Made by a program: the position numbers and the translations under genes | Shown here: piece after piece, positions 3,679-60,546 of the stretch | How the letters are laid out: the number at the start of each line of letters is the position of its first letter | How positions within the stretch are numbered: position 1 is the first letter of the stretch | Notes under the pieces: generated by a model | Databases searched by the model: none | What the model saw: only the letters and a program-made list of their open reading frames with translations | What the model was told of the DNA's origin: nothing | IMG/VR virus record: IMGVR_UViG_3300028887_000002 | Span: 1-64,000 of that record | Strand: one strand, 5' to 3' | DNA: 64,000 nucleotides | DNA from: a virus | Taxonomy: Duplodnaviria; Heunggongvirae; Uroviricota; Caudoviricetes

Positions 3679-3932
3679 TTTCTATATAGTTTTGGATTTC
3701 CTTCGTTGTCTGTTAACTGGACTATTGCAGTTCCATTCCCGCCTCTAAATGTTTCAAGATATAAACAACCAGTCTCTCTGTCAACCCATACTTTATAAGT
3801 CTATCCGCGTTCAACAACATCAACCATATCGCCCACGTCACCTCGTTCGTTGTCGCCACTAGTGCTGGTACAAGATACTGAACCAACTATTGTTGCAATT
3901 GCAAACGATAATATCAAAATAATCTTTCGCAT
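3675..3932 (-). pseudogene. lipoprotein-like ORF (DUF6440-like C-terminus) with in-frame TAG at codon 44
   Basis: MRKIILILSFAIATIVGSVSC...VERG*TYKVWVDRETGCLYL...LTDNEGNPKLYRK fills the gap between neighbours exactly. Confidence 0.6.
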
Positions 3933-19151: not shown

Positions 19152-19754
19152 ATGACAGAATATACAATAAAGACATTTGATGAAAAGATACATAACATCT
19201 ATATCAAGGGCACAGTAGGCGAGGATATGTGGCAGACTGTGGTAGATAAGATAAATGAGATTAAAAGTTCTGATAATGATGTAGTTGAGCAAAATAAAGC
19301 ATCTTTAAGGTCTGCTGGTATTGAATTTCAAATTATTAAACCATCTATAAATATTTATTTATGTACTTATGGTGGCAGTGTATATGACATGTTAGCGATT
19401 TATGATGAAATTAAAAAACTCGCTCAGGAATATGTCGTGAATATCTATTGTGTAGGCAAAATCATGTCAGCAGGTACTATTATAATGCTGGCTGTTGACT
19501 TGGAGCATCGTTTTGCATACCCCAATACAACATTTATGTATCATACCCTGTCAAGTTTGGTTTGGGGAAAAATGAAAGACCTTGAGGAGAATGTAGAAGA
19601 AGACAGACGCCTTCATAAATTGATGTGGAGCATCTATAAAGATAACACAGGAATACCAGTTGAAAAACTCAATGAAATATACAAAAGCAAGAAGGACTGG
19701 TATATAACAGCTGAAAAGGCTAAAAAATATAAGATTATAAGTAAAATAATATAA
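19152..19754 (+). CDS. clpP: ClpP-like serine protease
   Basis: YGGSVYD, MSAGT (Ser), FMYH (His), DWYITAEKA (Asp). Confidence 0.85.
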   Translation: MTEYTIKTFDEKIHNIYIKGTVGEDMWQTVVDKINEIKSSDNDVVEQNKASLRSAGIEFQIIKPSINIYLCTYGGSVYDMLAIYDEIKKLAQEYVVNIYCVGKIMSAGTIIMLAVDLEHRFAYPNTTFMYHTLSSLVWGKMKDLEENVEEDRRLHKLMWSIYKDNTGIPVEKLNEIYKSKKDWYITAEKAKKYKIISKII

Positions 19755-22352: not shown

Positions 22353-24155
22353 ATGTATACAAAGAACAGAGAGGCTATAATGGAAATCAAGCGCGGTCAC
22401 ACTGGAACGGGACTGCTGATAGAGAATGATGGACATATAGTCGGCAACAACGATACCATTAGGCAGATAAAGGAGGATATTGAACATCACGACAAGTTTG
22501 TTATCCCCGACAAGTTCGTGGTGAGCGCCGTGTTCCAGAAGTACGGCATAAAGAACGCCAACGGAAGGATATATCCCGAAGCAATATTGAAGAGGGAAGT
22601 TGAGAAGTACATCAACGACAGGGTACGTACCCGTGGGTCGATAGGAGCCTTGGACCACCCGAGTTGCCAACTTTCAGGCACCAGAATATTAACCAAATAC
22701 GGGTGGAAACTCATTGAAGATATCACCACTGAAGATGAGGTATTAACCCTCAAAGAAAACAAGGATATTGAAATCAATAAGGTCAAACGCAAGATAGAGT
22801 CGGATTACACAGGAAAATTGATTTGTCTGAAGGGTAGGTTTATTGACTTGAAGGTGACCCCTAACCATAAGTTCCCAGTATTTGACCGTCACAAGAAATG
22901 GAAAGGATTTTATACCGCGCAAGAAATATTGGACGGTTTGATTCCTGACCAGTCACACTGCTATTTGTATAAGCAAGGAAACTGGATTGGCGAGAATGAT
23001 GAATTCTTTACATTACCTGCATTAACGGCTGAGGAGATTGCAAGGATACCTTCAAATACACTGAAGGAAAAATATTCACATGAATTACAAATCCCTATGG
23101 ATGTGTGGGCTAAGTTTATGGGTATATACTTATCAGAAGGATGTACTGATTTGCCTGACAAAGTTTCAATATTCCAAAGAAAAGAAAGTGTTTGTGATGA
23201 AATTAGGGAAATGTTAACAGAATTCCCGTTAAAATATACTGAATATTACCGTAATAATACATCAATTTTTGTTGTATGTGATATGCGTTTAGTAAAGTAC
23301 CTCAAACAGTTTGGTATTTGCTACGATAAATATGTACCTTATGAACTGAAGAAACAGAACAAGGAAACATTGAGACTCTTCTACGACTGGTTTGTTATGG
23401 GTGACGGAAGAGGTCGTGGCTTGAATGCTGAAAATTATTACACTGATGATGTATTCTCAACTTCCCAAAGACTTGTTATGGACTTGAATGAGATTCAATT
23501 AAAAATTGGTTATAATGGAGCATATCATATGGTAGAACGCAATTACGACAGAGTGATTGAAGACCGTGTGATTAAGGCTGAAAACTCTTCCCCTATGCAC
23601 TTCACCTACCGTTCACACAATCAGTATATTTTGCTTGGGAAGATGAAAGTAACTGAAGAGGATTATGAAGGCAAGGTTTATTGCATTGAATGTAAGAACC
23701 ACGACTTCTACACCATGGGGCATGACGGGCATTGCTTATGGTCGGGAAACAGTACCACATTATCAGGACATGATGTAAGTCATATCATAACCAACCTTGA
23801 ATGGGTTGGACAGACCTTGATAGGTGAGATGGAACTGCACCTCACCCCTGGCTACAGGCGTTACGGCATTGCAAGCACAAGCGGTGACCTGGTTGCAAAC
23901 ATGCTACTTGACAACATACATGTGGGTGTATCGTCGAGGGGTGTTGGAACCGTTGAGGATAAGTTCGGCGTTATGATGGTTGGTGATGACTATGAACTGC
24001 TCTGCTGGGACGTTGTAATGGAACCGAGTTCACCTGGTGCGTGGATTGGCATGGATAGGAACGAACTGCAACAGTACGTTGAATCAGACCAAAGCCGTAA
24101 TGACAAGCCGATTGTCACTGAAAAGATACAGCGAATAAAACAAATATTGGTTTAG
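22353..24155 (+). CDS. T4 gp21-like prohead core protease with intein
   Basis: KNANGRIYP, GALDHP, VSH, VGVSSRGVG, WDVVMEPSSPGAW; probable start 22380. Confidence 0.9.
   Translation: MYTKNREAIMEIKRGHTGTGLLIENDGHIVGNNDTIRQIKEDIEHHDKFVIPDKFVVSAVFQKYGIKNANGRIYPEAILKREVEKYINDRVRTRGSIGALDHPSCQLSGTRILTKYGWKLIEDITTEDEVLTLKENKDIEINKVKRKIESDYTGKLICLKGRFIDLKVTPNHKFPVFDRHKKWKGFYTAQEILDGLIPDQSHCYLYKQGNWIGENDEFFTLPALTAEEIARIPSNTLKEKYSHELQIPMDVWAKFMGIYLSEGCTDLPDKVSIFQRKESVCDEIREMLTEFPLKYTEYYRNNTSIFVVCDMRLVKYLKQFGICYDKYVPYELKKQNKETLRLFYDWFVMGDGRGRGLNAENYYTDDVFSTSQRLVMDLNEIQLKIGYNGAYHMVERNYDRVIEDRVIKAENSSPMHFTYRSHNQYILLGKMKVTEEDYEGKVYCIECKNHDFYTMGHDGHCLWSGNSTTLSGHDVSHIITNLEWVGQTLIGEMELHLTPGYRRYGIASTSGDLVANMLLDNIHVGVSSRGVGTVEDKFGVMMVGDDYELLCWDVVMEPSSPGAWIGMDRNELQQYVESDQSRNDKPIVTEKIQRIKQILV
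22665..23750 (+). mobile_element. intein with LAGLIDADG homing endonuclease (362 aa)
   Basis: HPS|CQLSGTRILT, VTPNHKF, FMGIYLSEG, FVMGDG, VYCIE...WSGN|S. Confidence 0.9.
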
Positions 24156-28730: not shown

Positions 28731-29132
28731 ATGTACGAGCAAGTTTGCAAATTGATTTTTCAGTTGTATTTGTATGCTGACAACACCAAGATGATACACT
28801 ATAGTACCAACGGCAACCATATTCACGAACTATGTGATACTGTCCGCGATGACATTTTGTCATTCGTTGATGATTTGGCTGAACAGTATTTTGGTGTTGA
28901 AGGGAAACCGAAGTATAATGACTTCAGTCTGAAACAGGAGATAATGGCTACCGATGATATTGGTATGTTGTGCAAGAACGCAAGCGGTACTGTTGACTGG
29001 CTGAGGAAAAAATGCGAACCCGATACCAAATTTTCGGGAATTGTATCGCTGATTGATGACTTCAAGGGGAAAATGGCAAAAGACGCTTTCCTCTCTACAT
29101 TCGACAAACTATCAAACAGGAACGAGGACTAA
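28731..29132 (+). CDS. Dps/ferritin-like four-helix protein
   Basis: KMIHY...IHELCD...VDDLAEQYFG; TATTTAT at 28703. Confidence 0.6.
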   Translation: MYEQVCKLIFQLYLYADNTKMIHYSTNGNHIHELCDTVRDDILSFVDDLAEQYFGVEGKPKYNDFSLKQEIMATDDIGMLCKNASGTVDWLRKKCEPDTKFSGIVSLIDDFKGKMAKDAFLSTFDKLSNRNED

Positions 29133-31507
29133 CAGAAGTCCTCGTCTGTGAATATGTAGCCTTTGCCGAGGTGCTTGTCGATAATCAGGTCAGTTATTCT
29201 ATCCTCCATTTGGCGTCGTATTTCCCTTAATATTGGCCTTGCACCGTATTCGCTCTCCTTTGAAACGTTTTCCTTTATAGTGTTGAATAATTTTCCAACA
29301 TACAAGGAATCGTCAGCATCATAGCCGATATTGTGCAGACGTTCAATAACCTTCTTTATTTCAATCTGTATAATTTTTGAGAGGTTTTCCTCGTTAAGCG
29401 GGTTGAATATCAGTAGCGAGTCAATACGGTTAAGGAATTCGGGATTAAACTTTGACTTGAGAGCCTTCTTGATAATCTCAACGTCAGTAATTGCAGTGTT
29501 ATCACGGGAGAAACCGATTGGGTTTGCCTTGTCGGAAACTTGTCTTGCACCAACATTCGAGGTCATTATAATTATAACATCCTTGAAGTTGACCTTTGTA
29601 CCCTTATTGTCAGTCAACTGACCATCATCGAATACTTGTAGCAATACATTGAAAACTTCTTCGTTAGCCTTTTCGATTTCATCAAGCAGTAGGACGCATC
29701 TGTTTTTTCTCTTGATTGCCTCTGTCAGTATACCACCCTCATCGTAACCGACATAACCAGCCGCCGAGCCGTATAATTTGTTCACGCTTATCTTGTCTGA
29801 ATATTCACTCATATCAAGGCGCACCATATCATCTTCCGAACCGAATACACATTCGGATAACTTCTTCGCCAGGTATGTCTTGCCAGTACCAGTACAACCT
29901 ACAGCCATGAAGACCACTGGTTTGTTCGGGTTTGAAAGTCCAACCCTATGTCGTCTTACTGCACGGCATACTTCGTCTACAGCCTCGTCCTGTCCTATAA
30001 CCATATCCTTCATCCTGTATGAAAGGTTCTTTAACTTTTCAACCTCATCCTTGTTAAGTTCACCCACTGGGATATTAATCTTCTGTGATATTGCTTTGTA
30101 GATTTCCTTTGGTTCGATTGGCGTTGCATAACGTCTAGTTCTCTGTTTCTTTTCGTGAAGTTCAATCTTGCTGTTAACTTCAATGAGTTCGTTTGTTAAT
30201 TCGTCAATTCTATCGTATTCCTTTGAAGCACTGTTTAGTTTAAGACGTTCAATCTCGTTGCTGATACTATCCCTGTCGGCTTTGAGTTTTGCTAAAGCAC
30301 TGTCCTTTATATGTAACAAGTGTTGTCTTGCTGAGACTTCATCAAGAAGGTCTATTGCCGACAACGGGAGTTTTGTATCTCTTACATAACGTTCGCACAA
30401 CTTTGCGGTCAGTTCGATTGTGGCTTCATCTATAGAAACTGAATGTTTATTTTCCAATGCGATTTTTGTTACATTCAAAAGTGATACTGTTTCACTAACT
30501 GACATTGGTTCCATCTTTATTTCGTGAAACTTGCTACATAAATTCTCGCTTGACTTTATGTATTTTGAATAACCATCGGGCGTGGTTGTACCAATAATCA
30601 TTATGTTGGGGTTATCTAGCATTTGTGATATGAGACCTGCGGTTGATATGTCGGATATGCTTGCGTTCGGCCTCAGTAACTGGTGTATATCGTCCATTAC
30701 AATAATATACTTGTTAGTTCTGTTGGCTTCCTCTATTATAGTCTTTATTTTGGCTTCGAGTATTCCTCTTGCCGCAGTACCGACCAAAAGTGACAGTACA
30801 TCAAACGATACCATTCTCTTTCCGATGAAAGGTGACGGAACTTCTTCTGAACAAAGTAGGTTTGCGATATGGTTTATCGTGGTAGTCTTTCCGATACCGT
30901 CTTCACCAACCACGATTGCGTTGTTGCGTTCATTCTTTGCGAGTGTATTGAAAATATCGGCTATAATATTATCCCTTCCGTATGCGGTAGGTAAGTTTCC
31001 TTCAGAAGCCATCTTGCTTAGGCTGGGCAATATCCTCTCAATTTCACCAGTTTCACTTGTTTTGGTATCCTTCTGGACTTTCTTTTTCTTAAAGAGTTCC
31101 TTTAGAACTTTGTCCTTGTTCTCTGCAAGTCTTTTGACTGAACTATCCGATATCTCTTCGAGTTTGGCATATATGTCATTGTTGCTTCTTGATATGCTTA
31201 TCAATATGTCACAACTGTCGATTACTGAATTTTTGATGTTGCCGACGGCTGATGAAATAAACCCTTCGACATCTGGGCTTGTCTTTGGAACAAAAGTGCT
31301 TCCAGTAAGTTTGGTTATGCAGAACTCGCTTATTTCTACCAGTCGGTTTTCACCGATAGTCGCGGCAAGCACCCTGTTTGCAAGACACTTGTTGTCAAAT
31401 GTTACCGAAAGCAAATAATGATATGGCGTAATGTTCTTGGTTGGATATTCAACCGCTATGCTGCTTAGCGTTTCAATCAGTTTGTTAAGTTCTATACTGT
31501 GTTCCAT
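29129..31507 (-). CDS. ClpC/ClpB-family AAA+ ATPase
   Basis: GEDGIGKT, LPLSAIDLLDE, coiled-coil M-domain, VIGQDEAV, GCTGTGKT, RLDMSEY, GYVGY, LLDEIEKA, IGF loop, GARP. Confidence 0.93.
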   Translation of the reverse strand: MEHSIELNKLIETLSSIAVEYPTKNITPYHYLLSVTFDNKCLANRVLAATIGENRLVEISEFCITKLTGSTFVPKTSPDVEGFISSAVGNIKNSVIDSCDILISISRSNNDIYAKLEEISDSSVKRLAENKDKVLKELFKKKKVQKDTKTSETGEIERILPSLSKMASEGNLPTAYGRDNIIADIFNTLAKNERNNAIVVGEDGIGKTTTINHIANLLCSEEVPSPFIGKRMVSFDVLSLLVGTAARGILEAKIKTIIEEANRTNKYIIVMDDIHQLLRPNASISDISTAGLISQMLDNPNIMIIGTTTPDGYSKYIKSSENLCSKFHEIKMEPMSVSETVSLLNVTKIALENKHSVSIDEATIELTAKLCERYVRDTKLPLSAIDLLDEVSARQHLLHIKDSALAKLKADRDSISNEIERLKLNSASKEYDRIDELTNELIEVNSKIELHEKKQRTRRYATPIEPKEIYKAISQKINIPVGELNKDEVEKLKNLSYRMKDMVIGQDEAVDEVCRAVRRHRVGLSNPNKPVVFMAVGCTGTGKTYLAKKLSECVFGSEDDMVRLDMSEYSDKISVNKLYGSAAGYVGYDEGGILTEAIKRKNRCVLLLDEIEKANEEVFNVLLQVFDDGQLTDNKGTKVNFKDVIIIMTSNVGARQVSDKANPIGFSRDNTAITDVEIIKKALKSKFNPEFLNRIDSLLIFNPLNEENLSKIIQIEIKKVIERLHNIGYDADDSLYVGKLFNTIKENVSKESEYGARPILREIRRQMEDRITDLIIDKHLGKGYIFTDEDFC

Positions 31508-52164: not shown

Positions 52165-52655
52165 TATATGGTTTCTAACTTACCAACGCAACTGCACCAG
52201 CAGATATTTCCTCCTTCGGTTTCAATCAGCCAATAGGTATCCATAAAGTCAGCGCCAATGCCTACGAGCCTACCAGTAGTATACCCATCGGTTACTACAA
52301 TTTTCTCCTTGTTTGATAAATAGTCCTCGTATATCTCCTTCAAAGGGAATGTTTCCTGTCGGGGCGACCATGTTCCTTTCACTATTGCTTCTAACTCGTG
52401 TTCAGTATATATGTGACGGATTTTGCCGTATTTATATGAAGAAAGGATTTTTCTTAATTCCGTGTTGTCTTTTTCAAAGTTTTTATAGTTTGTGCGTACA
52501 TCCCCATAGGCAATATTATCAACTTGGGTGATAAACTTCAACATATCGTGCGACACAACAAACGCCTTCTCTAACAACTTGCGAAATTGTTCCAAATCGT
52601 CAATCAACAGATAGTCTTTTTTCTTAGTTTTTGGCATAGTCTTATTTTTTTTCAA
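52164..52655 (-). CDS. hypothetical protein
   Basis: 163-aa ORF. Confidence 0.55.
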   Translation of the reverse strand: MKKNKTMPKTKKKDYLLIDDLEQFRKLLEKAFVVSHDMLKFITQVDNIAYGDVRTNYKNFEKDNTELRKILSSYKYGKIRHIYTEHELEAIVKGTWSPRQETFPLKEIYEDYLSNKEKIVVTDGYTTGRLVGIGADFMDTYWLIETEGGNICWCSCVGKLETI

Positions 52656-53038: not shown

Positions 53039-54496
53039 ATGAACTACATAGACTGCATAGTGAACGAGACCATACATAGATACGTCCTGAACGAGTCGGC
53101 CACCGACCGTTTCATTGATAACCTCATATTGAAAAACCTTCCCGAAAGGGCGAAGGGACTGATAAATACACCGTTGAATGTGATAGTGAAGGAACATCCA
53201 GAGGCACTGAACGGCGTGGCGCTGAACGAGAACCCTGAAGTGATGCAGAAGTACGGCGACCTTCCGCTGAAGGACTTCATAAGGGTTTCGATAATGCAGA
53301 TGTTCGACATCGGTCACGGAAAAGGACCGAAGAAGTACCTGCGTGGCATCTTCCGCATAATGCTTGACGAGATACGCTGTCTGTCGAACCCCGACCAAAA
53401 CGCCGTCAACCAGTTGAAGGACGACGTGATGTATATTATGCAGGCCTCGCAGAACGGCACCGACCCTGAGGCGTCGCAGATGGACGGGAATCTGAACGGG
53501 CTGTCGCTCTCGCAGATAAACCGCACGTTTAAGGAGAAGCGCAAGGCGTTCTTCGCGAATATCCGCAACAGGCTGTCCAGTACCTTCAAGGGCAAGTCTA
53601 ATGCTCCGAGGTACGAGAAGGTTGTCATAACCGACCAGAAGCAGTGTACAAAATATGCGCCTTATACCAAGTGGTGCATAACGTGGAGTCCCGCGAACTA
53701 CAACATCTACACGCAGGGAGGCAGGAGGTTCTACATGTTCCTGAGGGAAGGCTACCAAAATGTCAGGTGCGAGGTCGGCGAGAACTGCCCGTTCGACGAC
53801 TACGGGATGAGTATGGTGTCGGTCTTGGTCGACATGGAAGGCAACATCGCCATCATAACGACGAGGTGGAACCACGACCACGACGGCGAGATGAGTCCGC
53901 CGTCGCAGGAGCAGATAGAGATGGTCATGAACCTTATGGGCGTGAACCTGTACAGGGAATGCCCCCCGTATACAAGGGACGAACTGAAGGCGATGGGCAT
54001 CACGCCGTTTGAGGACGTACCTGAACTGCTCACCCAGGGGGTCGACCCAATGGAGATATTCAGTCGGATTGGTGATTTCTACGACGGGTTCGCAAGGGTT
54101 GAACTGAACAGGAAATGGAACTACTTCACGACTGATGGGATGTTGCTCTCACCCGACCAGTGGTTTGATGCTGCTGGTAATTTTTTCGAAGGGTTCGCGG
54201 GGGTTGTACTGAACAACGGGAAATGGAACTTCCTTACGACTGATGGTCAGATATTATATAAGCCAAATGAACCCGACCAGTGGTTCGATGATGCTTATTA
54301 TTTTCACGAAGGGTTTGCTTTGGTTGAAGTGAACAGGAAAGACTATTGGTTGCGTAAGGACGGGGTATTGTGTGACTATCACACGAAGCAACCAATAGGT
54401 GATATGAATGAATCCTATGATATGAAATCCGTACTGCTGAACGAGTCGGTACAGAAGTGCAAGGACTTGTGGTACAGGATAATGAGAAATAACTAA
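53039..54496 (+). CDS. putative virion-internal protein with WG/KWG repeats
   Basis: Leader IVNETIHRYVLNE; TKWCIT..TTRWNH domain; F.EGFA.V....KWN(Y/F).TTDG repeats. Confidence 0.7.
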   Translation: MNYIDCIVNETIHRYVLNESATDRFIDNLILKNLPERAKGLINTPLNVIVKEHPEALNGVALNENPEVMQKYGDLPLKDFIRVSIMQMFDIGHGKGPKKYLRGIFRIMLDEIRCLSNPDQNAVNQLKDDVMYIMQASQNGTDPEASQMDGNLNGLSLSQINRTFKEKRKAFFANIRNRLSSTFKGKSNAPRYEKVVITDQKQCTKYAPYTKWCITWSPANYNIYTQGGRRFYMFLREGYQNVRCEVGENCPFDDYGMSMVSVLVDMEGNIAIITTRWNHDHDGEMSPPSQEQIEMVMNLMGVNLYRECPPYTRDELKAMGITPFEDVPELLTQGVDPMEIFSRIGDFYDGFARVELNRKWNYFTTDGMLLSPDQWFDAAGNFFEGFAGVVLNNGKWNFLTTDGQILYKPNEPDQWFDDAYYFHEGFALVEVNRKDYWLRKDGVLCDYHTKQPIGDMNESYDMKSVLLNESVQKCKDLWYRIMRNN

Positions 54497-54511: not shown

Positions 54512-56083
54512 ATGCAAAGAAGAATCGATGAGATGATGGATGAAATAGAATCATCTGAAATAAACCTCAAGCCGTTCAAGCCCAAGAATGAACTTGAACC
54601 ACACCTATGGGTTGACGGAAAGTTGGATTCAAGGGTTAGGCTTAAACTGTTGGATATTGCTGATGATTTTATTAAGACATTGAATATAAAGTGGGTGAAA
54701 CCATTGGATATTGTTCTTACGGGTTCGATTGCCAATTACAACTGGTCAGAATTCTCGGATATTGATGTCCACGTTATAATGGATTATGATGAGGTATCGC
54801 CGAAAAGGGAGTTTGTTGAAAAATACTTCAAGACAAAAAGGGATGAATGGTCGGAAGCACATGATGAACTCACTATATTCGGTTATCCAGTTGAAATGTT
54901 TGTTGAGGATAGTGAAAACCCGTCAGACAGTTCGGGAGTGTATTCACTGAACAGTAACAAGTGGCTTGTAAAGCCCACCGATATGAAGGAAATGGAAAGT
55001 GACCCTGAATATGTTAAGGATGTTGCTGCAAAAATAATCACCAAGATTGAGTCTCTCTGTGACAAGATTGAAACAGAAACTGACACGGTAAAGGTTCGCA
55101 AGGCAACCGACAAGTTGGAAAAAATATACGACTACCTCAAACATGCAAGACAGAAATCACTGAAGGAAGACGGCGAGATGGGGTTTGGAAATATCCTGTG
55201 GAAGATTGTAAAGCATATGGGGTATATTGAAATGCTCTGGGACTGCTTCAATACCTCATACGACAAGTCGAACTCGCTTAACGAGGGTTGGTTGTTCGGT
55301 GCTGGTGGAATGTTCAGTCAATATAACAATATGGTGAATATTCCTAACAATAATGTCAATGCCGTTGAACAGATGATTAAGCAATACAATGACAAGATGA
55401 GGGAATATGGGGTTAAACCGAAAGGCTATAAGACAGCCAAGAACAATAACTACTTTACTACCTATTACTTCAATGACAATAGGCTTGCAAATACCATACG
55501 TCAGAGCAACTATAGTATGGAAGCAATGTATCGTCAGGCTTCGCAACCTCAGCAACAGCAACAAGCCCCAAACGGTCAGCAACAGACGGCTAATAATCAA
55601 CAAGCACAGCGACCTGCAACGACTGGACAACAAGCACAGCCGACAACTGGAACTACACAACAACGACCAGTTAATACCACAGCATCGTTACGTCCGAAAC
55701 AACCGTCGTCACAGCAACAGTCACCAAATATTCAACAGACTTCACAACTCCAAAAGTCCACACCAACTAGCTTGCCACATGTGACACAGCACCAGTCATT
55801 ATTATATGCTGACTCCATTTTTAATGGTAAGTTGACTAGAGTTAATAAAACACCAAGTGAAGATAGTGTGTTTGAATTGAACCCCGTAGGAAGTAATAAG
55901 GCAAATGTAACGCTTAATAAAAATGCTTATAGAAAAATATTGGCCAACCCATCTTATCTTGATGGATGTAAATATCAAATAATAGGTTATAACGATGTTG
56001 TAGTCAATAAGCAAGGTGTGGCTCAAAAGGATGATAATGGTAAGTGGGTTATCACTACTCCACCTGAAATTTTATTAAAATAA
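54512..56083 (+). CDS. Pol-beta-superfamily nucleotidyltransferase fused through LNE to a Q-rich linker and a C-terminal domain
   Basis: LTGSIANYNWSEFSDIDVH, YPVEMFVED, GVYSL...WLVKP. Confidence 0.75.
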   Translation: MQRRIDEMMDEIESSEINLKPFKPKNELEPHLWVDGKLDSRVRLKLLDIADDFIKTLNIKWVKPLDIVLTGSIANYNWSEFSDIDVHVIMDYDEVSPKREFVEKYFKTKRDEWSEAHDELTIFGYPVEMFVEDSENPSDSSGVYSLNSNKWLVKPTDMKEMESDPEYVKDVAAKIITKIESLCDKIETETDTVKVRKATDKLEKIYDYLKHARQKSLKEDGEMGFGNILWKIVKHMGYIEMLWDCFNTSYDKSNSLNEGWLFGAGGMFSQYNNMVNIPNNNVNAVEQMIKQYNDKMREYGVKPKGYKTAKNNNYFTTYYFNDNRLANTIRQSNYSMEAMYRQASQPQQQQQAPNGQQQTANNQQAQRPATTGQQAQPTTGTTQQRPVNTTASLRPKQPSSQQQSPNIQQTSQLQKSTPTSLPHVTQHQSLLYADSIFNGKLTRVNKTPSEDSVFELNPVGSNKANVTLNKNAYRKILANPSYLDGCKYQIIGYNDVVVNKQGVAQKDDNGKWVITTPPEILLK

Positions 56084-56156: not shown

Positions 56157-57710
56157 ATGGCTGATTATTCTAACGAAATATCGAGAATGCAATTCTTGAT
56201 GGGTTTTAACAACAATATCAACGAGAGCAAGGATAATTCCTCGGCAATCGAATATTCGATGGAAGGCGCTGACGGTAAGACCTATGGTATCATAAAGGAA
56301 GGTACTAAGTATTATATAAAGGTCGCTCCGAAGAAAAACAGTGCAGTATTGCTTGAAGACTATGACTACATCGGTGGTATCAACGAGAAGAAGAAATATG
56401 AATATTCTTCGTACAACATGGCATCAAAGCAGTTTGACCTCAAACTTATGTCAATCAACGAGGCTTGCCACGCAAACAAGCCAGTGGTTCAGCCGACCGA
56501 AAGCGCTGAATGGCAGGTTAAGGAAACAAAGGAAATGCGCAAGGAACTTGACCGTTTCAACCAAATCTGTGAGAATGTAAACAACCTTCTCAGCGAGAAC
56601 AACGCATTCTTCCTTGACAGACCAACCGCTTGCGGAAAGAACGCACCACAGGGCAAGGATTCTTCAAACCCGTTTTCAATGGTTCTCACCAATGCCGACA
56701 TGGAATTTGACGGCAAGAAGGTAACTGACCCAGCAAAGGCTGACAAGACCTATGACAAGAAGGCTGAGGCTGAAGAAGACTACAAGGGTACAAAGCATAC
56801 CGACCCCAAGACCGCCGACGATACTTTCTCGGAAAAGGGAAAGAAGATAAACGAAGGAAGAACATTCCGTCTGACTGAAGAACAGGTTCTCGCATGGAGC
56901 AAGTCGAAGGACTTCATTGATATGAGCAAGGGTACAAAGAAGGGTTCGACCAAGCCTTACGAATACATTGAGGAGCCAATCAACGAGGAAACCCAGATGG
57001 CCGAGTTCGGCGAGACTGACGTTAAGCCGTTGCCAGCAGGTATCGGTGATGCTGACGGAAAGGGTGAGCCTTTTAACGATGAGGTTAATGAATCGGATGA
57101 AGATAACACGATTGAAATCATTATCAACGCTGACGGTGATGACGATATTCTCTGTGATGATGAAGGTTGTATTGATTTGGGTGACGAAGAGGTTGAAGTA
57201 GAGGATGACGATGAGGAAGATGATTTTGAAGATGATGAGGAGGAAGTTATTGACCTCACCGATATTCTTGATGACGAAGAACCTGTCGAAGATGAAACCG
57301 AAGAATCTGAAATAGAACTTGACTTTGACGATGAAGAGTCTGACGAAGACGAAGACTTGGATGACGAAGAAGATGACTTTGATTTTGAGGACGAAGAGGA
57401 AGAAGAAATCGACCTTGATGATGAGGAAGATGATTTTGACGACGAAGAAGATTTTGAAGAAGATGATGATGAAGAACGTCTTGATGAATCAAACGACCCA
57501 CAATACTTCGGTGAACACCCAGCATACGGCAAGGAACCAATGGAATACGGCAACTATGAAGAACCGAGTGGTCGTAAGGACTGGAATGACGAATCAGCAA
57601 AGGGACGCAAGAGATTTGGGTTGAAGAAGGGTTCAAACTTCCCATACACCAACAAGTCGGTTTCTGATGCTGTAAGCGAAGCAATGTCGCGTGTGTTAAA
57701 AAAAAAATAA
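56157..57710 (+). CDS. highly acidic prohead scaffold/core-like protein
   Basis: Many INE/VNE/LSE/LDE sites, long D/E tract, TATTTAT at 56118. Confidence 0.6.
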   Translation: MADYSNEISRMQFLMGFNNNINESKDNSSAIEYSMEGADGKTYGIIKEGTKYYIKVAPKKNSAVLLEDYDYIGGINEKKKYEYSSYNMASKQFDLKLMSINEACHANKPVVQPTESAEWQVKETKEMRKELDRFNQICENVNNLLSENNAFFLDRPTACGKNAPQGKDSSNPFSMVLTNADMEFDGKKVTDPAKADKTYDKKAEAEEDYKGTKHTDPKTADDTFSEKGKKINEGRTFRLTEEQVLAWSKSKDFIDMSKGTKKGSTKPYEYIEEPINEETQMAEFGETDVKPLPAGIGDADGKGEPFNDEVNESDEDNTIEIIINADGDDDILCDDEGCIDLGDEEVEVEDDDEEDDFEDDEEEVIDLTDILDDEEPVEDETEESEIELDFDDEESDEDEDLDDEEDDFDFEDEEEEEIDLDDEEDDFDDEEDFEEDDDEERLDESNDPQYFGEHPAYGKEPMEYGNYEEPSGRKDWNDESAKGRKRFGLKKGSNFPYTNKSVSDAVSEAMSRVLKKK

Positions 57711-57775
57711 ATGAACGTAAGGTATTAAGAGTACCTCATACTGAACCCGCCCTGGATATGGCTGACCAGGGCGGG
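57696..57775 (+). other. putative programmed -1 frameshift signal
   Basis: TTA AAA AAA AAA TAA; the -1 frame reads INERKVLRVPH...DM into the next ORF; downstream hairpins. Confidence 0.65.
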
Positions 57776-58351
57776 GCAGACTTCGGTCAGATGCCCCCTA
57801 TGCCGCCTATGGATATGAATGGCGGTATGCCCCCAATGGGCAATAACATGATGCCACCTGCTGACGATGGTGAAAATTACGAGGCTGATATGAACATTGA
57901 TGTTGAAGCCGATGAAAACACCGAGCCTGAAAAATACATACAGCAGGTTACTGGCAAACTCAGCCAATCCTTAAGAAAATACAACGAATCACTACCACAG
58001 CCAGATGCTGACCTCAACAAGTATGTTGCTGGAATGATAAACGCACAGGCACTTAAGGGTCTTTCAAAGGAAGATGCTGATGAAATAATCAAGAAGATAC
58101 AGGACGATACTGCGAATCCCGAACAATCACAGGGTAACGAAGGTGGTGAAATGCCGAACGATATGCAACCGCCAATGCAAGGTGATGAAGGTGGAATGCA
58201 ACCGCAGGGTAATGAACCCCCAATGATGGAAGGCCGTTTGTCTGAAAGGACTATTTCAACCTTGAAGAAAAATGACGATATAAGTGCTGAACCTAAGAAG
58301 AAAAAATCCTTCAAAACGTCACCTTATAATTCGCCTTCGTGGAAGAAATAA
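57758..58351 (+). CDS. M/P/Q-rich scaffold-like protein, probably the frameshift extension of 56157
   Basis: KYIQQVTGKLSQSLR..KYVAGMI core; reading frame open upstream to the A10 run. Confidence 0.65.
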   Translation: MADQGGADFGQMPPMPPMDMNGGMPPMGNNMMPPADDGENYEADMNIDVEADENTEPEKYIQQVTGKLSQSLRKYNESLPQPDADLNKYVAGMINAQALKGLSKEDADEIIKKIQDDTANPEQSQGNEGGEMPNDMQPPMQGDEGGMQPQGNEPPMMEGRLSERTISTLKKNDDISAEPKKKKSFKTSPYNSPSWKK

Positions 58352-58429: not shown

Positions 58430-58861
58430 ATGAAACGACAACCAAGAATTTCAAAAGAAATCAAATTAGATGATTTGAATTTCAAAAGTACCTACGGAAC
58501 TTTTAACCGTAACATTCCAAATGTAATTTATATCAATGGGAAGACAAAGGTTAAACCTATCGTTGAAAAGACTGACTATTCAATGGATTCAAGGAATATA
58601 AAGAAATCCTTCACAAATTTTGTTGATAAAACCGTGAAGGATAATGATACTTTCTTTGATGAATATATATGTACTTGCGATGTAAGCGAGAATGGTCTGG
58701 AATATGGGAAGAGAAGCAATCTGAAGTATTCGGTTTTCCTAAAGCCCAAGGAATTGAAACCGATTGAGGATTATCTTTCTGTTATCAGTAACTTTAATGC
58801 AACCGTAACTAGTTTTCTGAGTGAAGAGTTGAACGAAAGAGGCTTTGAGACTAGGTACTAG
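58430..58861 (+). CDS. hypothetical protein
   Basis: Start moved to MKRQPR, downstream of the promoter. Confidence 0.6.
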   Translation: MKRQPRISKEIKLDDLNFKSTYGTFNRNIPNVIYINGKTKVKPIVEKTDYSMDSRNIKKSFTNFVDKTVKDNDTFFDEYICTCDVSENGLEYGKRSNLKYSVFLKPKELKPIEDYLSVISNFNATVTSFLSEELNERGFETRY

Positions 58862-60546
58862 TTTTCGGTTTCCTCTTCCACCTCAGCAGTACACATGACA
58901 CCATTACATTCAAAAGAGACCGTCTTTGCTGAAGGATTCAGTGGTGTCCAGTACTTAATGTGGATGAGTTCTCCGTCAACATTGCCCCACTTGCACGGCT
59001 TTATACATTTGTAGCAGTCGGTATCACCGACCAACTCGTCAATAACGTCAGGATATTCCTTGCATGTCACCTGAAAAGCCTTGTTGAGCATTCGTGCTTG
59101 CCATTTATTAACTAACTTTACAAGCCCAATCATTCGGTTGAAATTAGACAAACCAACTTTCAACCAGCCGAACTTTGTTTTCTTGATGGGTATGAGACAG
59201 TGGTCGATTTTGAACCATAGTTTAGTCCACCAACTGCCACCGTACCATACGCGGTAGCCACAAAGTATCTGGGCAAGACCCCCATCCCAAAAGGTTAAAT
59301 ATTCGTCACGATAGCAATTGCCACACCAGTAACCCTTTCCATTTTGTCTTACATATATGATATGATTTGGAACTGTACAACAATATACTTCGCCATCATA
59401 GTCAACCCATTCTTCGGTAAAATTCTTTATAAGTCCATGTCTTACTTTTGAAGTTTCAATCTCAACTTCTTTGTTCTTCATCCAATTTATTTCATATGAT
59501 GGTTTTTTTGATATTATTTTATGTCCACTCTCTTTTATTATTGATGTTTTATGTCTATCACGTATACGTACTCTAAATGTATCTCCACATTTCAATATTA
59601 ATTCACATACATCATCAGATAACTGTTTAGATGTTGTAGTTAATATGTTGCTGGTTTTCGCTTGGTGTCCATCCCCGATATATAAATATTCCAAAAACAA
59701 ACGGATTGACTCTTTATCGAGTTCTTTTATGAAAGAAGGAACTTTTTTATTTTCAGCACCACGTCCACAATTATTTGTAATCCATTCTCTTAATAATGGT
59801 TGGCTAAAATATTTGAAAGAGTTTGGTTTATTAGTATGAGGAATGAAGCCCATATTACTGATTAATGATTTTGCTAGTTCTGTTTCGGTATATGGGTTAT
59901 GTGCAATGTTAATTGTTGTTTTATAAGTAAATCCTTCAGCAACATAAAACCCTAAAAATTTCAAAAAGGGTTTCATTTCAATTCGTACTTCACTGTAATG
60001 GTCGATTCTTGTGTACGGTTTACTTTTCCGATTAACCTTTACAATTTTTTCAGTTGCAGGAATTACGAAAAATTCTTCAGGTGTTTTGCCGTCCCATTTT
60101 ACATCCTTCTTAAATCGCTTGTCTTGCCCAAAATAAGTGTCAGGTGTTGTTAATTCAAATGGGTGACACCGTTTTTCTTGTTTTTTGAAATATGAGCCTT
60201 TGCTAACATATAAATTATGATTTGGTGTTACAAGAATATCAAGCCCTCTATTCATAAGTTTATACATTTTCCCTTCATAATGATAATGTATAATATCGGT
60301 TGGGCGATTATATTCAAGATACTCACCGTCTTTGAGTGTCGCAACTTCATCTTCCATAGTTATATCTTTTATATTTTTCCAACCATTTTTAGTTAAGATT
60401 TCAGCGGAATCCGTAAAGCATCCCCACTTTTCTTTCCCACACACACCCATTCGCGCCCACTTGTGTATGCGTTTTTCAACAGCGTTTATCGCACTATATA
60501 AATTGTCGCCGTGTTCCTTAAACCAATCGTCACCCCATTCATGCAT
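58858..60546 (-). CDS. intein-containing protein of unknown function (194-aa extein)
   Basis: Extein ...VCGKEKWG|CYRDEYL... Confidence 0.75.
   Translation of the reverse strand: MHEWGDDWFKEHGDNLYSAINAVEKRIHKWARMGVCGKEKWGCFTDSAEILTKNGWKNIKDITMEDEVATLKDGEYLEYNRPTDIIHYHYEGKMYKLMNRGLDILVTPNHNLYVSKGSYFKKQEKRCHPFELTTPDTYFGQDKRFKKDVKWDGKTPEEFFVIPATEKIVKVNRKSKPYTRIDHYSEVRIEMKPFLKFLGFYVAEGFTYKTTINIAHNPYTETELAKSLISNMGFIPHTNKPNSFKYFSQPLLREWITNNCGRGAENKKVPSFIKELDKESIRLFLEYLYIGDGHQAKTSNILTTTSKQLSDDVCELILKCGDTFRVRIRDRHKTSIIKESGHKIISKKPSYEINWMKNKEVEIETSKVRHGLIKNFTEEWVDYDGEVYCCTVPNHIIYVRQNGKGYWCGNCYRDEYLTFWDGGLAQILCGYRVWYGGSWWTKLWFKIDHCLIPIKKTKFGWLKVGLSNFNRMIGLVKLVNKWQARMLNKAFQVTCKEYPDVIDELVGDTDCYKCIKPCKWGNVDGELIHIKYWTPLNPSAKTVSFECNGVMCTAEVEEETEN
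59317..60420 (-). mobile_element. intein with LAGLIDADG homing endonuclease (368 aa)
   Basis: G|CFTDSAEILTKNGWK, VTPNHNL, FLGFYVAEG, LYIGDG, VYCCTVPNH...WCGN|C. Confidence 0.9.

Follow-up and report, generated by a model that had tools for sequence, protein, structure and literature searches.

Introduction

Slippery sites made of A-rich lysine codons allow one gene to yield two products that share their N-terminal part at a set ratio, as in dnaX, where the slippage is ribosomal or transcriptional depending on the lineage. In E. coli dnaX, ribosomes shift into the -1 frame at A_AAA_AAG, stimulated by an upstream Shine-Dalgarno (SD)-like element and a downstream hairpin; Thermus thermophilus dnaX relies on transcriptional slippage on A9, and some IS elements also slip transcriptionally. 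Elements related to IS3 and IS911 use heptamers or long A-runs, and frameshifts in phages produce the tail assembly chaperones G/GT and the 10A/10B capsid proteins of T7. Here we describe a junction of this kind between two open reading frames (ORFs), ORF1 and ORF2, in a 64,000-nucleotide (nt) stretch of phage DNA, hereafter the window, which comprises bases 1-64000 of IMGVR_UViG_3300028887_000002, a virus record that is complete at 339,287 bp and has terminal repeats. Comparison with 67 distinct junctions indicates that the ORF1-ORF2 junction is very probably a programmed -1 recoding site.

The recoding mechanism is of a known type, that of dnaX, IS3, G/GT, T7 10A/10B and phage A2. Unlike the dnaX shift, which gives the shorter product, the ORF1-ORF2 shift would give the longer one, and the defined stimulators of E. 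coli dnaX have no conserved counterpart at the ORF1-ORF2 junctions. Like orfA and orfB of IS3 and IS911, ORF1 and ORF2 are overlapping 0/-1 ORFs joined at A-rich heptamers, with a short product and a fusion that would both be functional; those elements, however, encode mobile-element transposases, have defined downstream structures and belong to an unrelated setting. In the structural frameshifts of phages (G/GT, T7 10A/10B and A2), a virion-module gene has close to its 3' end a -1 shift that extends the C-terminus of a fixed minority of the product, and the layout is kept across diverged phages while the sequence drifts, much as we describe here. The present case differs in that it concerns an acidic head-module protein of T4-like giant phages with a protease-type motif at the join, and in that the extension is a separate conserved protein that stands behind other leaders in other relatives.

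Retroviral Gag-Pol offers a further parallel: a minority of an assembly protein is extended at its end, by a -1 shift, into a carrier-cargo fusion, so that the cargo is packaged at a set ratio, and the fusion is later cut apart by a virion protease. The likeness is an analogy only; the two systems have unrelated proteins, and packaging and cleavage are proposed in our case. In phages, prohead proteases of the S77 type remove N-terminal targeting or propeptide regions from head-packed proteins, including the T4 internal proteins and those of phiKZ and SPN3US, and cleave after Glu at x-X-E motifs (PMC9026906, PMC5694885). Similarly, every ORF2 homologue starts with [LIV]xE-(R/K)KV(L/I)K, whatever precedes it; in contrast, the T4 capsid-targeting peptide is about 10 residues long and in frame, whereas here a 517-amino-acid (aa) leader would be joined by frameshifting. 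Neither ORF1 nor ORF2 shows sequence similarity to the T4 internal proteins, gp22, gp67 or gp68 in Pfam and PHROGs.

Passages of a recoding review (PMC5009743) discuss heptamers of the A_AAA_AAA type, cover polymerase slippage on A-runs and cite the frameshift in the major head protein of Lactobacillus phage A2; scaffold or prohead cases of recoding are not mentioned in those passages. Our literature search found no publication describing the ORF1-ORF2 family or its site.

Results

An A10 run at the end of ORF1

ORF1 (56157..57710, plus strand, 517 aa) has the 3' end CGT GTG TTA AAA AAA AAA TAA, and its A-run offers slippery heptamers immediately before the stop codon (Table 1). In the -1 frame, the sequence continues as ATA AAT GAA CGT AAG GTA TTA AGA GTA CCT ..., encoding KKK-INERKVLRVPHTEPALD-M.., and ATG, GTG and TTG are all absent from this frame before 57758. 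The -1 frame is open from 57677, with a stop just before it; another stop, the TGA at 57665-57667, lies two codons upstream of that one. A peptide beginning VPHTEPALDMADQGG... is encoded within 57707-57757. The first-pass annotation, made from the letters of the window, had placed the end of ORF1, the A10 run and a 17-codon -1 frame leading into the annotated ATG at exactly these coordinates, as we found on re-reading the sequence. It had also remarked that the INE motif at the start of the linker is used throughout the upstream protein; we count five INE in ORF1 (residues 21, 75, 100, 231 and 275) and a VNE at residue 310.

Table 1. Coordinates in the window of the features of the ORF1-ORF2 junction and of the prohead protease gene.
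Feature	Position	Strand	Details
A10 run, proposed shift site	57698-57707	+	A_AAA_AAA heptamers in phase at 57698-57704 and at 57701-57707, the latter directly before the stop codon
Zero-frame stop TAA	57708-57710	+	end of the short product
-1 linker INERKVLRVPHTEPALD	57707..57757	+	17 codons without a start codon, into ATG 57758
INE, candidate prohead-protease cleavage motif ([LIVM]-x-E)	57707..57715	+	directly after the shift site
Hairpin 1, AGGTATT/AGTACCT	57717..57741 (core 57720-57736)	+	7 pairs including one G-U; 9 nt past the last heptamer
Perfect 10-bp G+C stem CCCGCCCTGG/CCAGGGCGGG	57746-57755 and 57766-57775	+	ATG 57758 in the loop
ORF2 as annotated by gene callers	57758..58351	+	197 aa, starts at ATG 57758
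T4-type (Peptidase_S77) prohead protease gene with intein	22353..24155	+	PF03420, 53 bits against a cut-off of 27; phrog_207

According to the mechanism that we propose, most ribosomes would translate ...V L K K K, terminate at TAA 57708 and release the 517-aa ORF1 protein. Some ribosomes would instead slip back one base on an in-phase A_AAA_AAA within A10, read INERKVLRVPHTEPALD and continue into ORF2, yielding a 731-aa fusion. An extra A added on A10 by RNA polymerase would lead to the identical protein, and this route may contribute. The comparative evidence below supports the shift proposed in the first-pass annotation, which had estimated the long form at about 730 aa.

An A10 run is not rare by itself in this genome of 39% GC; its plus strand contains seven runs of at least ten A, where about 1.8 would be expected. 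When we scanned the 339-kb genome, the junction run was the only plus-strand run of A8 or longer that ends a long ORF and has a long open -1 frame behind it. The one other match of the scan, a T8 at 52645-52652 (minus strand), has its stop inside the run and was set aside as dubious. The significance of the junction comes from its conservation.

The slippery site is conserved in diverged relatives

Searches with ORF2 yielded nine related viral contigs (39-52% identity) and a profile search another 80 loci; after deduplication we obtained 67 distinct junctions, all from uncultured phages. All nine of the first relatives share one arrangement, in which an ORF of 450-560 aa stops at A9 or A10 after overlapping the open frame of the ORF2 homologue by 13-16 nt, the two frames standing in the 0/-1 relation. 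This arrangement extends to the full set: in 67 of 67 junctions the 0/-1 overlap (13-112 nt) contains an in-phase X_XXY_YYZ heptamer, the upstream ORF ends just past it, and the ORF2 homologue lies in the -1 frame, which opens at or shortly before the slippery site. The first-pass annotation had named the persistence of A-run, stop and open -1 frame in related phages as one check on its proposal, and it is the heptamer together with the -1 downstream ORF that is kept throughout.

The longest A-run near the ORF1 stop is A3 in five junctions, A5, A7 and A8 in one each, A9 in 17, A10 in 38, A11 in three and A12 in one. Thus, 59 of the 67 junctions have A9-A12, with modes at 9 and 10, and eight have no long run. 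The heptamers at these eight are A_AAT_TTT followed by TAA (L014, L047 and L049), A_AAT_TTC followed by TGA (L053), G_GGT_TTT followed by TAA (L013 and L025), G_GGT_TTT and then CAA_AAA_AAA (L011), and an in-phase A7 (L076). All three lysine codons are AAA in nearly every lineage.

The family itself is large. ORF1 has more than 432 homologous clusters, all unnamed, and nearly all of them end in KKK-x-stop; 119 of the 120 listed homologues stop before ORF2, the exception (P0028) being an out-of-frame call. Relatives of ORF2 form 708 clusters at 50% identity and come from T4-like phages of rumen, gut, marine and lake samples. Neither ORF had a match in 50,697 phage records by megablast or tblastn, and no cultured relative at the locus was found there. 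With one distant family member as query, the same records gave matches to cultured marine phages, which we rejected because they run only via an unrelated inserted domain; a second distant member had no match in them. These data show that the site and the frame relation are deeply conserved among diverged relatives, including lineages in which one heptamer has been swapped for another.

Ribosomal versus transcriptional slippage

The alternative that survives best concerns the mechanism and not the product. The fusion could arise mainly by transcriptional slippage, with the polymerase adding one A on A10 and ribosomal slippage playing a minor part in the lineage of the window; the protein would be the same. 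Runs of at least nine A support slippage by RNA polymerase, and the A9-A12 found at most junctions go beyond the seven that a ribosome needs. This prevalence of runs longer than seven hints that polymerase slippage contributes. Insertion of a single A yields exactly ...LKKKINERK, and RNAalifold found no conserved downstream stimulator. Against this stand the eight junctions with A_AAT_TTT, A_AAT_TTC, G_GGT_TTT or an in-phase A7 or A8, which polymerase cannot use; furthermore, the short runs always lie in the one phase that a ribosome needs. The use of other in-phase heptamers where a long A-run is missing points to ribosomal slippage in those lineages, and, as far as sequence comparison reaches, we regard these eight junctions as decisive for it. 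The most parsimonious view is that ribosomal slippage is the ancestral mechanism and the general one, and we hold transcriptional slippage as the main route to be rather unlikely.

The window contains local structure downstream of the shift site. A 93-nt stretch folds at -31.2 kcal/mol (z = -4.4 relative to 200 shuffles), and the 9-nt spacing of hairpin 1 from the last heptamer falls within the 5-9 nt that suit a stimulatory structure; this hairpin is possibly a local frameshift stimulator. One of its pairs is lost in the near relatives L103 and L104. The G+C stem is unchanged in both, whereas in L010 the first ATG is enclosed by another stem. We rejected a family-wide stimulatory hairpin or pseudoknot because no RNAalifold consensus emerged from 22 junctions, and we rejected the G+C stem as an intrinsic terminator because no U-run follows it.

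The -1 segment is conserved as a protein

The segment between the slippery site and the first start codon of ORF2 would be translated, in the -1 frame, once a shift has occurred and not otherwise. This linker has the consensus [LIV]-x-E-(R/K)-K-V-(L/I)-(K/R)-(V/I/L), nine codons that lie 5' of any start codon. Among 31 distinct 27-mers, entropy at codon positions 1, 2 and 3 is 0.70, 0.29 and 1.26, so that variation falls mainly at position 3; the changes include switches between six-fold-degenerate codons for Arg (CGA/CGC/CGT/AGA/AGG) and Leu (TTA/TTG/CTA/CTT/CTC/CTG). A peptide that has no start codon of its own and varies at codon position 3 argues for translation and selection at the protein level.

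Other relatives reach the same join by different means. L102 has a single 1385-aa ORF in which an ORF1-like part is in frame with ORF2 (..SEKEKELDE-RKVLAV) and there is no A-run. In L057, P0253 and P0276, ORF2 is joined in frame to a duplicated C-terminal module of ORF1 (FGKHPGY..DWNDDS..PFG..SAPY..). In still other relatives, unrelated short leaders precede ORF2, yet all retain [LIV]xE-RKV(L/I)KV. ORF2 thus appears always to be made behind a leader, which in most lineages would be ORF1, joined by the shift.

These observations bear on a simpler view, that ORF1 and ORF2 are two ordinary independent genes, with ORF2 starting at ATG 57758, the A-run encoding a Lys-Lys-Lys C-terminus, and the -1 relation a result of tight packing. 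Gene callers do annotate ORF1 and ORF2 as separate genes everywhere, the first ATG of the ORF2 frame is 6-25 codons past the junction in most loci, and independent initiation alongside the shift is possible. But the position of this ATG varies between loci, and in 8 of 63 the first 30 to 153 codons past the junction include no ATG, GTG or TTG. In addition, two independent genes would not account for the synonymous changes in a segment 5' of the ATG that is conserved as protein, for three AAA lysine codons in nearly every lineage with an in-phase heptamer at every junction, or for the natural in-frame fusions, and we consider this view very improbable. On our reading, the current annotations of the family are all wrong alike, in that they assign ORF2 an arbitrary internal ATG and miss the fusion.

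The first-pass annotation had based its own case against independent initiation on the two hairpins, one of which encloses the ATG. Both hairpins exist in the window, but they are not a feature of the family and do not support that argument; a better one is that relatives have no conserved start and that some are startless for up to 153 codons.

The frame break is not an assembly artefact

Homopolymers are error-prone, and the break could have been introduced in sequencing or assembly, or by a recent frameshift mutation, into a gene that is really one ORF with A11. One related contig, L101 (from Logan SRR21898928), has A11 at the junction near 3890, and its two parts share one in-frame ORF of 654 aa; this is either a natural variant in run length or an assembly error in the homopolymer. 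However, the window shares A10 and the break with L103 and L104, which come from two independent Logan assemblies, and with the NCBI assembly L010 at 56% identity; ORF1 with exactly the same end is recorded from JGI, ENA and Logan; and none of the 67 distinct junctions has lost the break. L104 has a TAG stop and IDE as its -1 motif while the A10 is the same, so that the site has been kept through change in its surroundings. We find an error barely credible. Stop-codon readthrough or an alternative genetic code was rejected because more zero-frame stops come right after the first and the phage has no suppressor tRNA.

ORF1 and ORF2 as a possible carrier and cargo

ORF1 is strongly acidic, with 30% Asp and Glu overall and 64% in residues 301-440. 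A small folded domain at the N-terminus is followed by a long acidic, disordered stretch and then by a conserved C-terminal module (FGxHPAY..DWND.S..PFG..PY..helix) before the end ..VLKKK-stop. In the AlphaFold2 model, a single small domain (residues about 30-106) is confident, a helix spans 118-146, and the disordered acidic region is followed by a helix at the C-terminus. ORF2 is mostly disordered, rich in Met, Pro and Asp, with a basic C-terminal tail; in its AlphaFold2 model, one three-helix domain (DPxKYIQQ.TGKLSQ...KYVAGMI) is confident and the rest is disordered. Pfam and PHROGs contain no family for either protein. A feature search of the ESM Atlas with ORF2 gave unnamed viral clusters only, and its model had no match in the PDB with Foldseek. 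For the ORF1 model, a wide search with VIA-align gave a best Z of 5.5 with no hit standing out, and BFVD returned uncharacterised homologues only.

The phage encodes a T4-type prohead protease (Table 1), in which an Intein_splicing match covers residues 120-452 and the protease domain matches 52-105 and about 473-596. T4 gp21, the protease of T4, prefers L/I-X-E. In our phage the N-terminus of the capsid protein contains ..LIYE/ATA.. (here and below, a slash marks the known or putative scissile bond) at the position expected from T4 gp23, and it corresponds in place to the LTE/A site of gp23. Among the 374 ORFs of the genome, ORF1 has the highest density of [ILVM]NE (six sites, Poisson 6e-5), followed by its WG-repeat neighbour and then by the ORF at 259408..260949; about eight sites of this type are conserved in the ORF1 alignment. 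At the junction, [LIVM]xE is found within 14 residues past the shift in 63 of 63 junctions, compared to 21.7% of background windows. The protease site that the first-pass annotation had suggested at the join is thus borne out at the level of the motif, as a candidate site in a phage with an S77 protease.

Our best inference is that ORF1 and ORF2 have a head-internal, protease-processed role. The presence of an S77 protease in the phage and of [LIVM]xE after the shift in every junction makes a carrier-cargo fusion that is cut at the junction plausible. In what we consider the most likely scheme, a set fraction of the ORF2 cargo would be loaded into the prohead attached to the ORF1 carrier, and the S77 prohead protease would then cut at INE/RKVL, freeing ORF2 inside the capsid. 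We tentatively suggest that, in a manner resembling Gag-Pol, the shift may set the number of ORF2 copies per prohead via the acidic ORF1 tether, with S77 cleavage freeing the cargo; we favour this loading model less firmly than the recoding itself.

The first-pass annotation had also called the two ORFs scaffold-like. ORF1 is indeed acidic, mostly disordered and rich in the protease motif, and it belongs to a head module in one relative. However, ORF1 does not match the profile of a phage scaffolding protein, helical or coiled-coil and encoded beside the major capsid gene: the capsid gene lies about 200 kb away, and the predicted structure is largely disordered apart from a single small domain. 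Elsewhere in the genome, outside the window, an ORF at 259408..260949 (minus strand) encodes an acidic protein of 514 aa whose C-terminal part is coiled-coil-like and which has five [ILVM]NE. This ORF lies immediately upstream of the gene for the Gp23-family capsid protein and makes a stronger candidate than ORF1 for the main scaffold.

Genomic context

The genome is that of a T4-like giant phage. It encodes a Gp23-family capsid protein at 257-259 kb, a gp20-type (T4-type) portal protein at 83-84 kb and a large terminase (TerL) at 81 kb, so that its head genes, including the protease gene, are scattered (22 kb, 81-84 kb and 257 kb). In the relative L102, the fusion gene is followed, in this order, by genes for proteins of 103 and 390 aa, the S77 protease, a 496-aa protein and Gp23. 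A homologue of the 390-aa gene comes after ORF2 in rumen relatives, in which the gene pair is located near TerL.

The neighbours 5' of ORF1 encode a WG-repeat protein (53039-54496, plus strand) and a protein with a nucleotidyltransferase (NTase) domain (phrog_36119; 54512-56083, plus strand). The NTase gene precedes ORF1 also in L002, L009 and L101. The products of these two genes may be further head cargo processed by the protease.

Directly downstream of the ORF2 region, 58858-60546 (minus strand) is a 562-aa ORF that is mostly a Hint/LAGLIDADG intein in a short extein. Two of the rumen relatives, L006 (4754-7159) and L007 (4646-7039), have as the gene after ORF2 one for an 800-aa protein that combines a Spi inhibitor, a streptopain-like Peptidase_C10 domain and a type I dockerin. 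This dockerin-bearing protein is an unusual phage cargo and possibly hints at a cellulosome-bearing host.

Besides the S77 protease, the window encodes a ClpP-like protease (19152-19754, plus strand) and a double AAA+ ATPase of the ClpB/ClpA type (29129-31507, minus strand). The genome also has a cluster of 10 tRNAs at 85294-87449, outside the window, with no tRNA-Lys and no suppressor tRNA. ARAGORN reports two tRNAs with A34 anticodons (Phe-AAA and Asp-ATC), which is unusual.

Discussion

Our data argue that a programmed -1 shift joins ORF1 to ORF2, but several observations weigh against this reading or parts of it. The shift, its efficiency and any cleavage are deduced from sequence, and the slippage steps, whether on the ribosome or on the polymerase, from comparative data. 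At most sites, the window included, there are at least nine A's though seven suffice for ribosomal slippage, and these sites fit transcriptional slippage at least equally well. Downstream RNA structure gives no consensus pairs across the 22 junctions aligned and is only enriched, with 38% of 63 loci below the 10th percentile of their own background folding energy; local hairpins are therefore common yet lineage-specific. ORF2 could start independently at ATG 57758, and the single in-frame ORF with A11 in L101 indicates that run length may vary, or be mis-assembled, in places. As for function, the pair does not adjoin the protease, portal or capsid genes in its own genome, and the structure and family searches gave no functional match for either protein.

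If the programmed shift is real, then, leaving aside the G/GT frameshift of tail chaperones, few recoding sites in phages would be as widespread as the ORF1-ORF2 junction, with its 708 clusters of ORF2. The family also provides a comparative test bed, with A-runs, three other heptamers and in-frame fusions at one homologous join, that helps to separate ribosomal from polymerase slippage. Should the cargo model hold as well, the A-run, the other heptamers, the in-frame fusion and the duplicated carrier module would form a natural series for the birth and loss of recoding sites, and the arrangement would suggest how giant phages meter proteins into the head.

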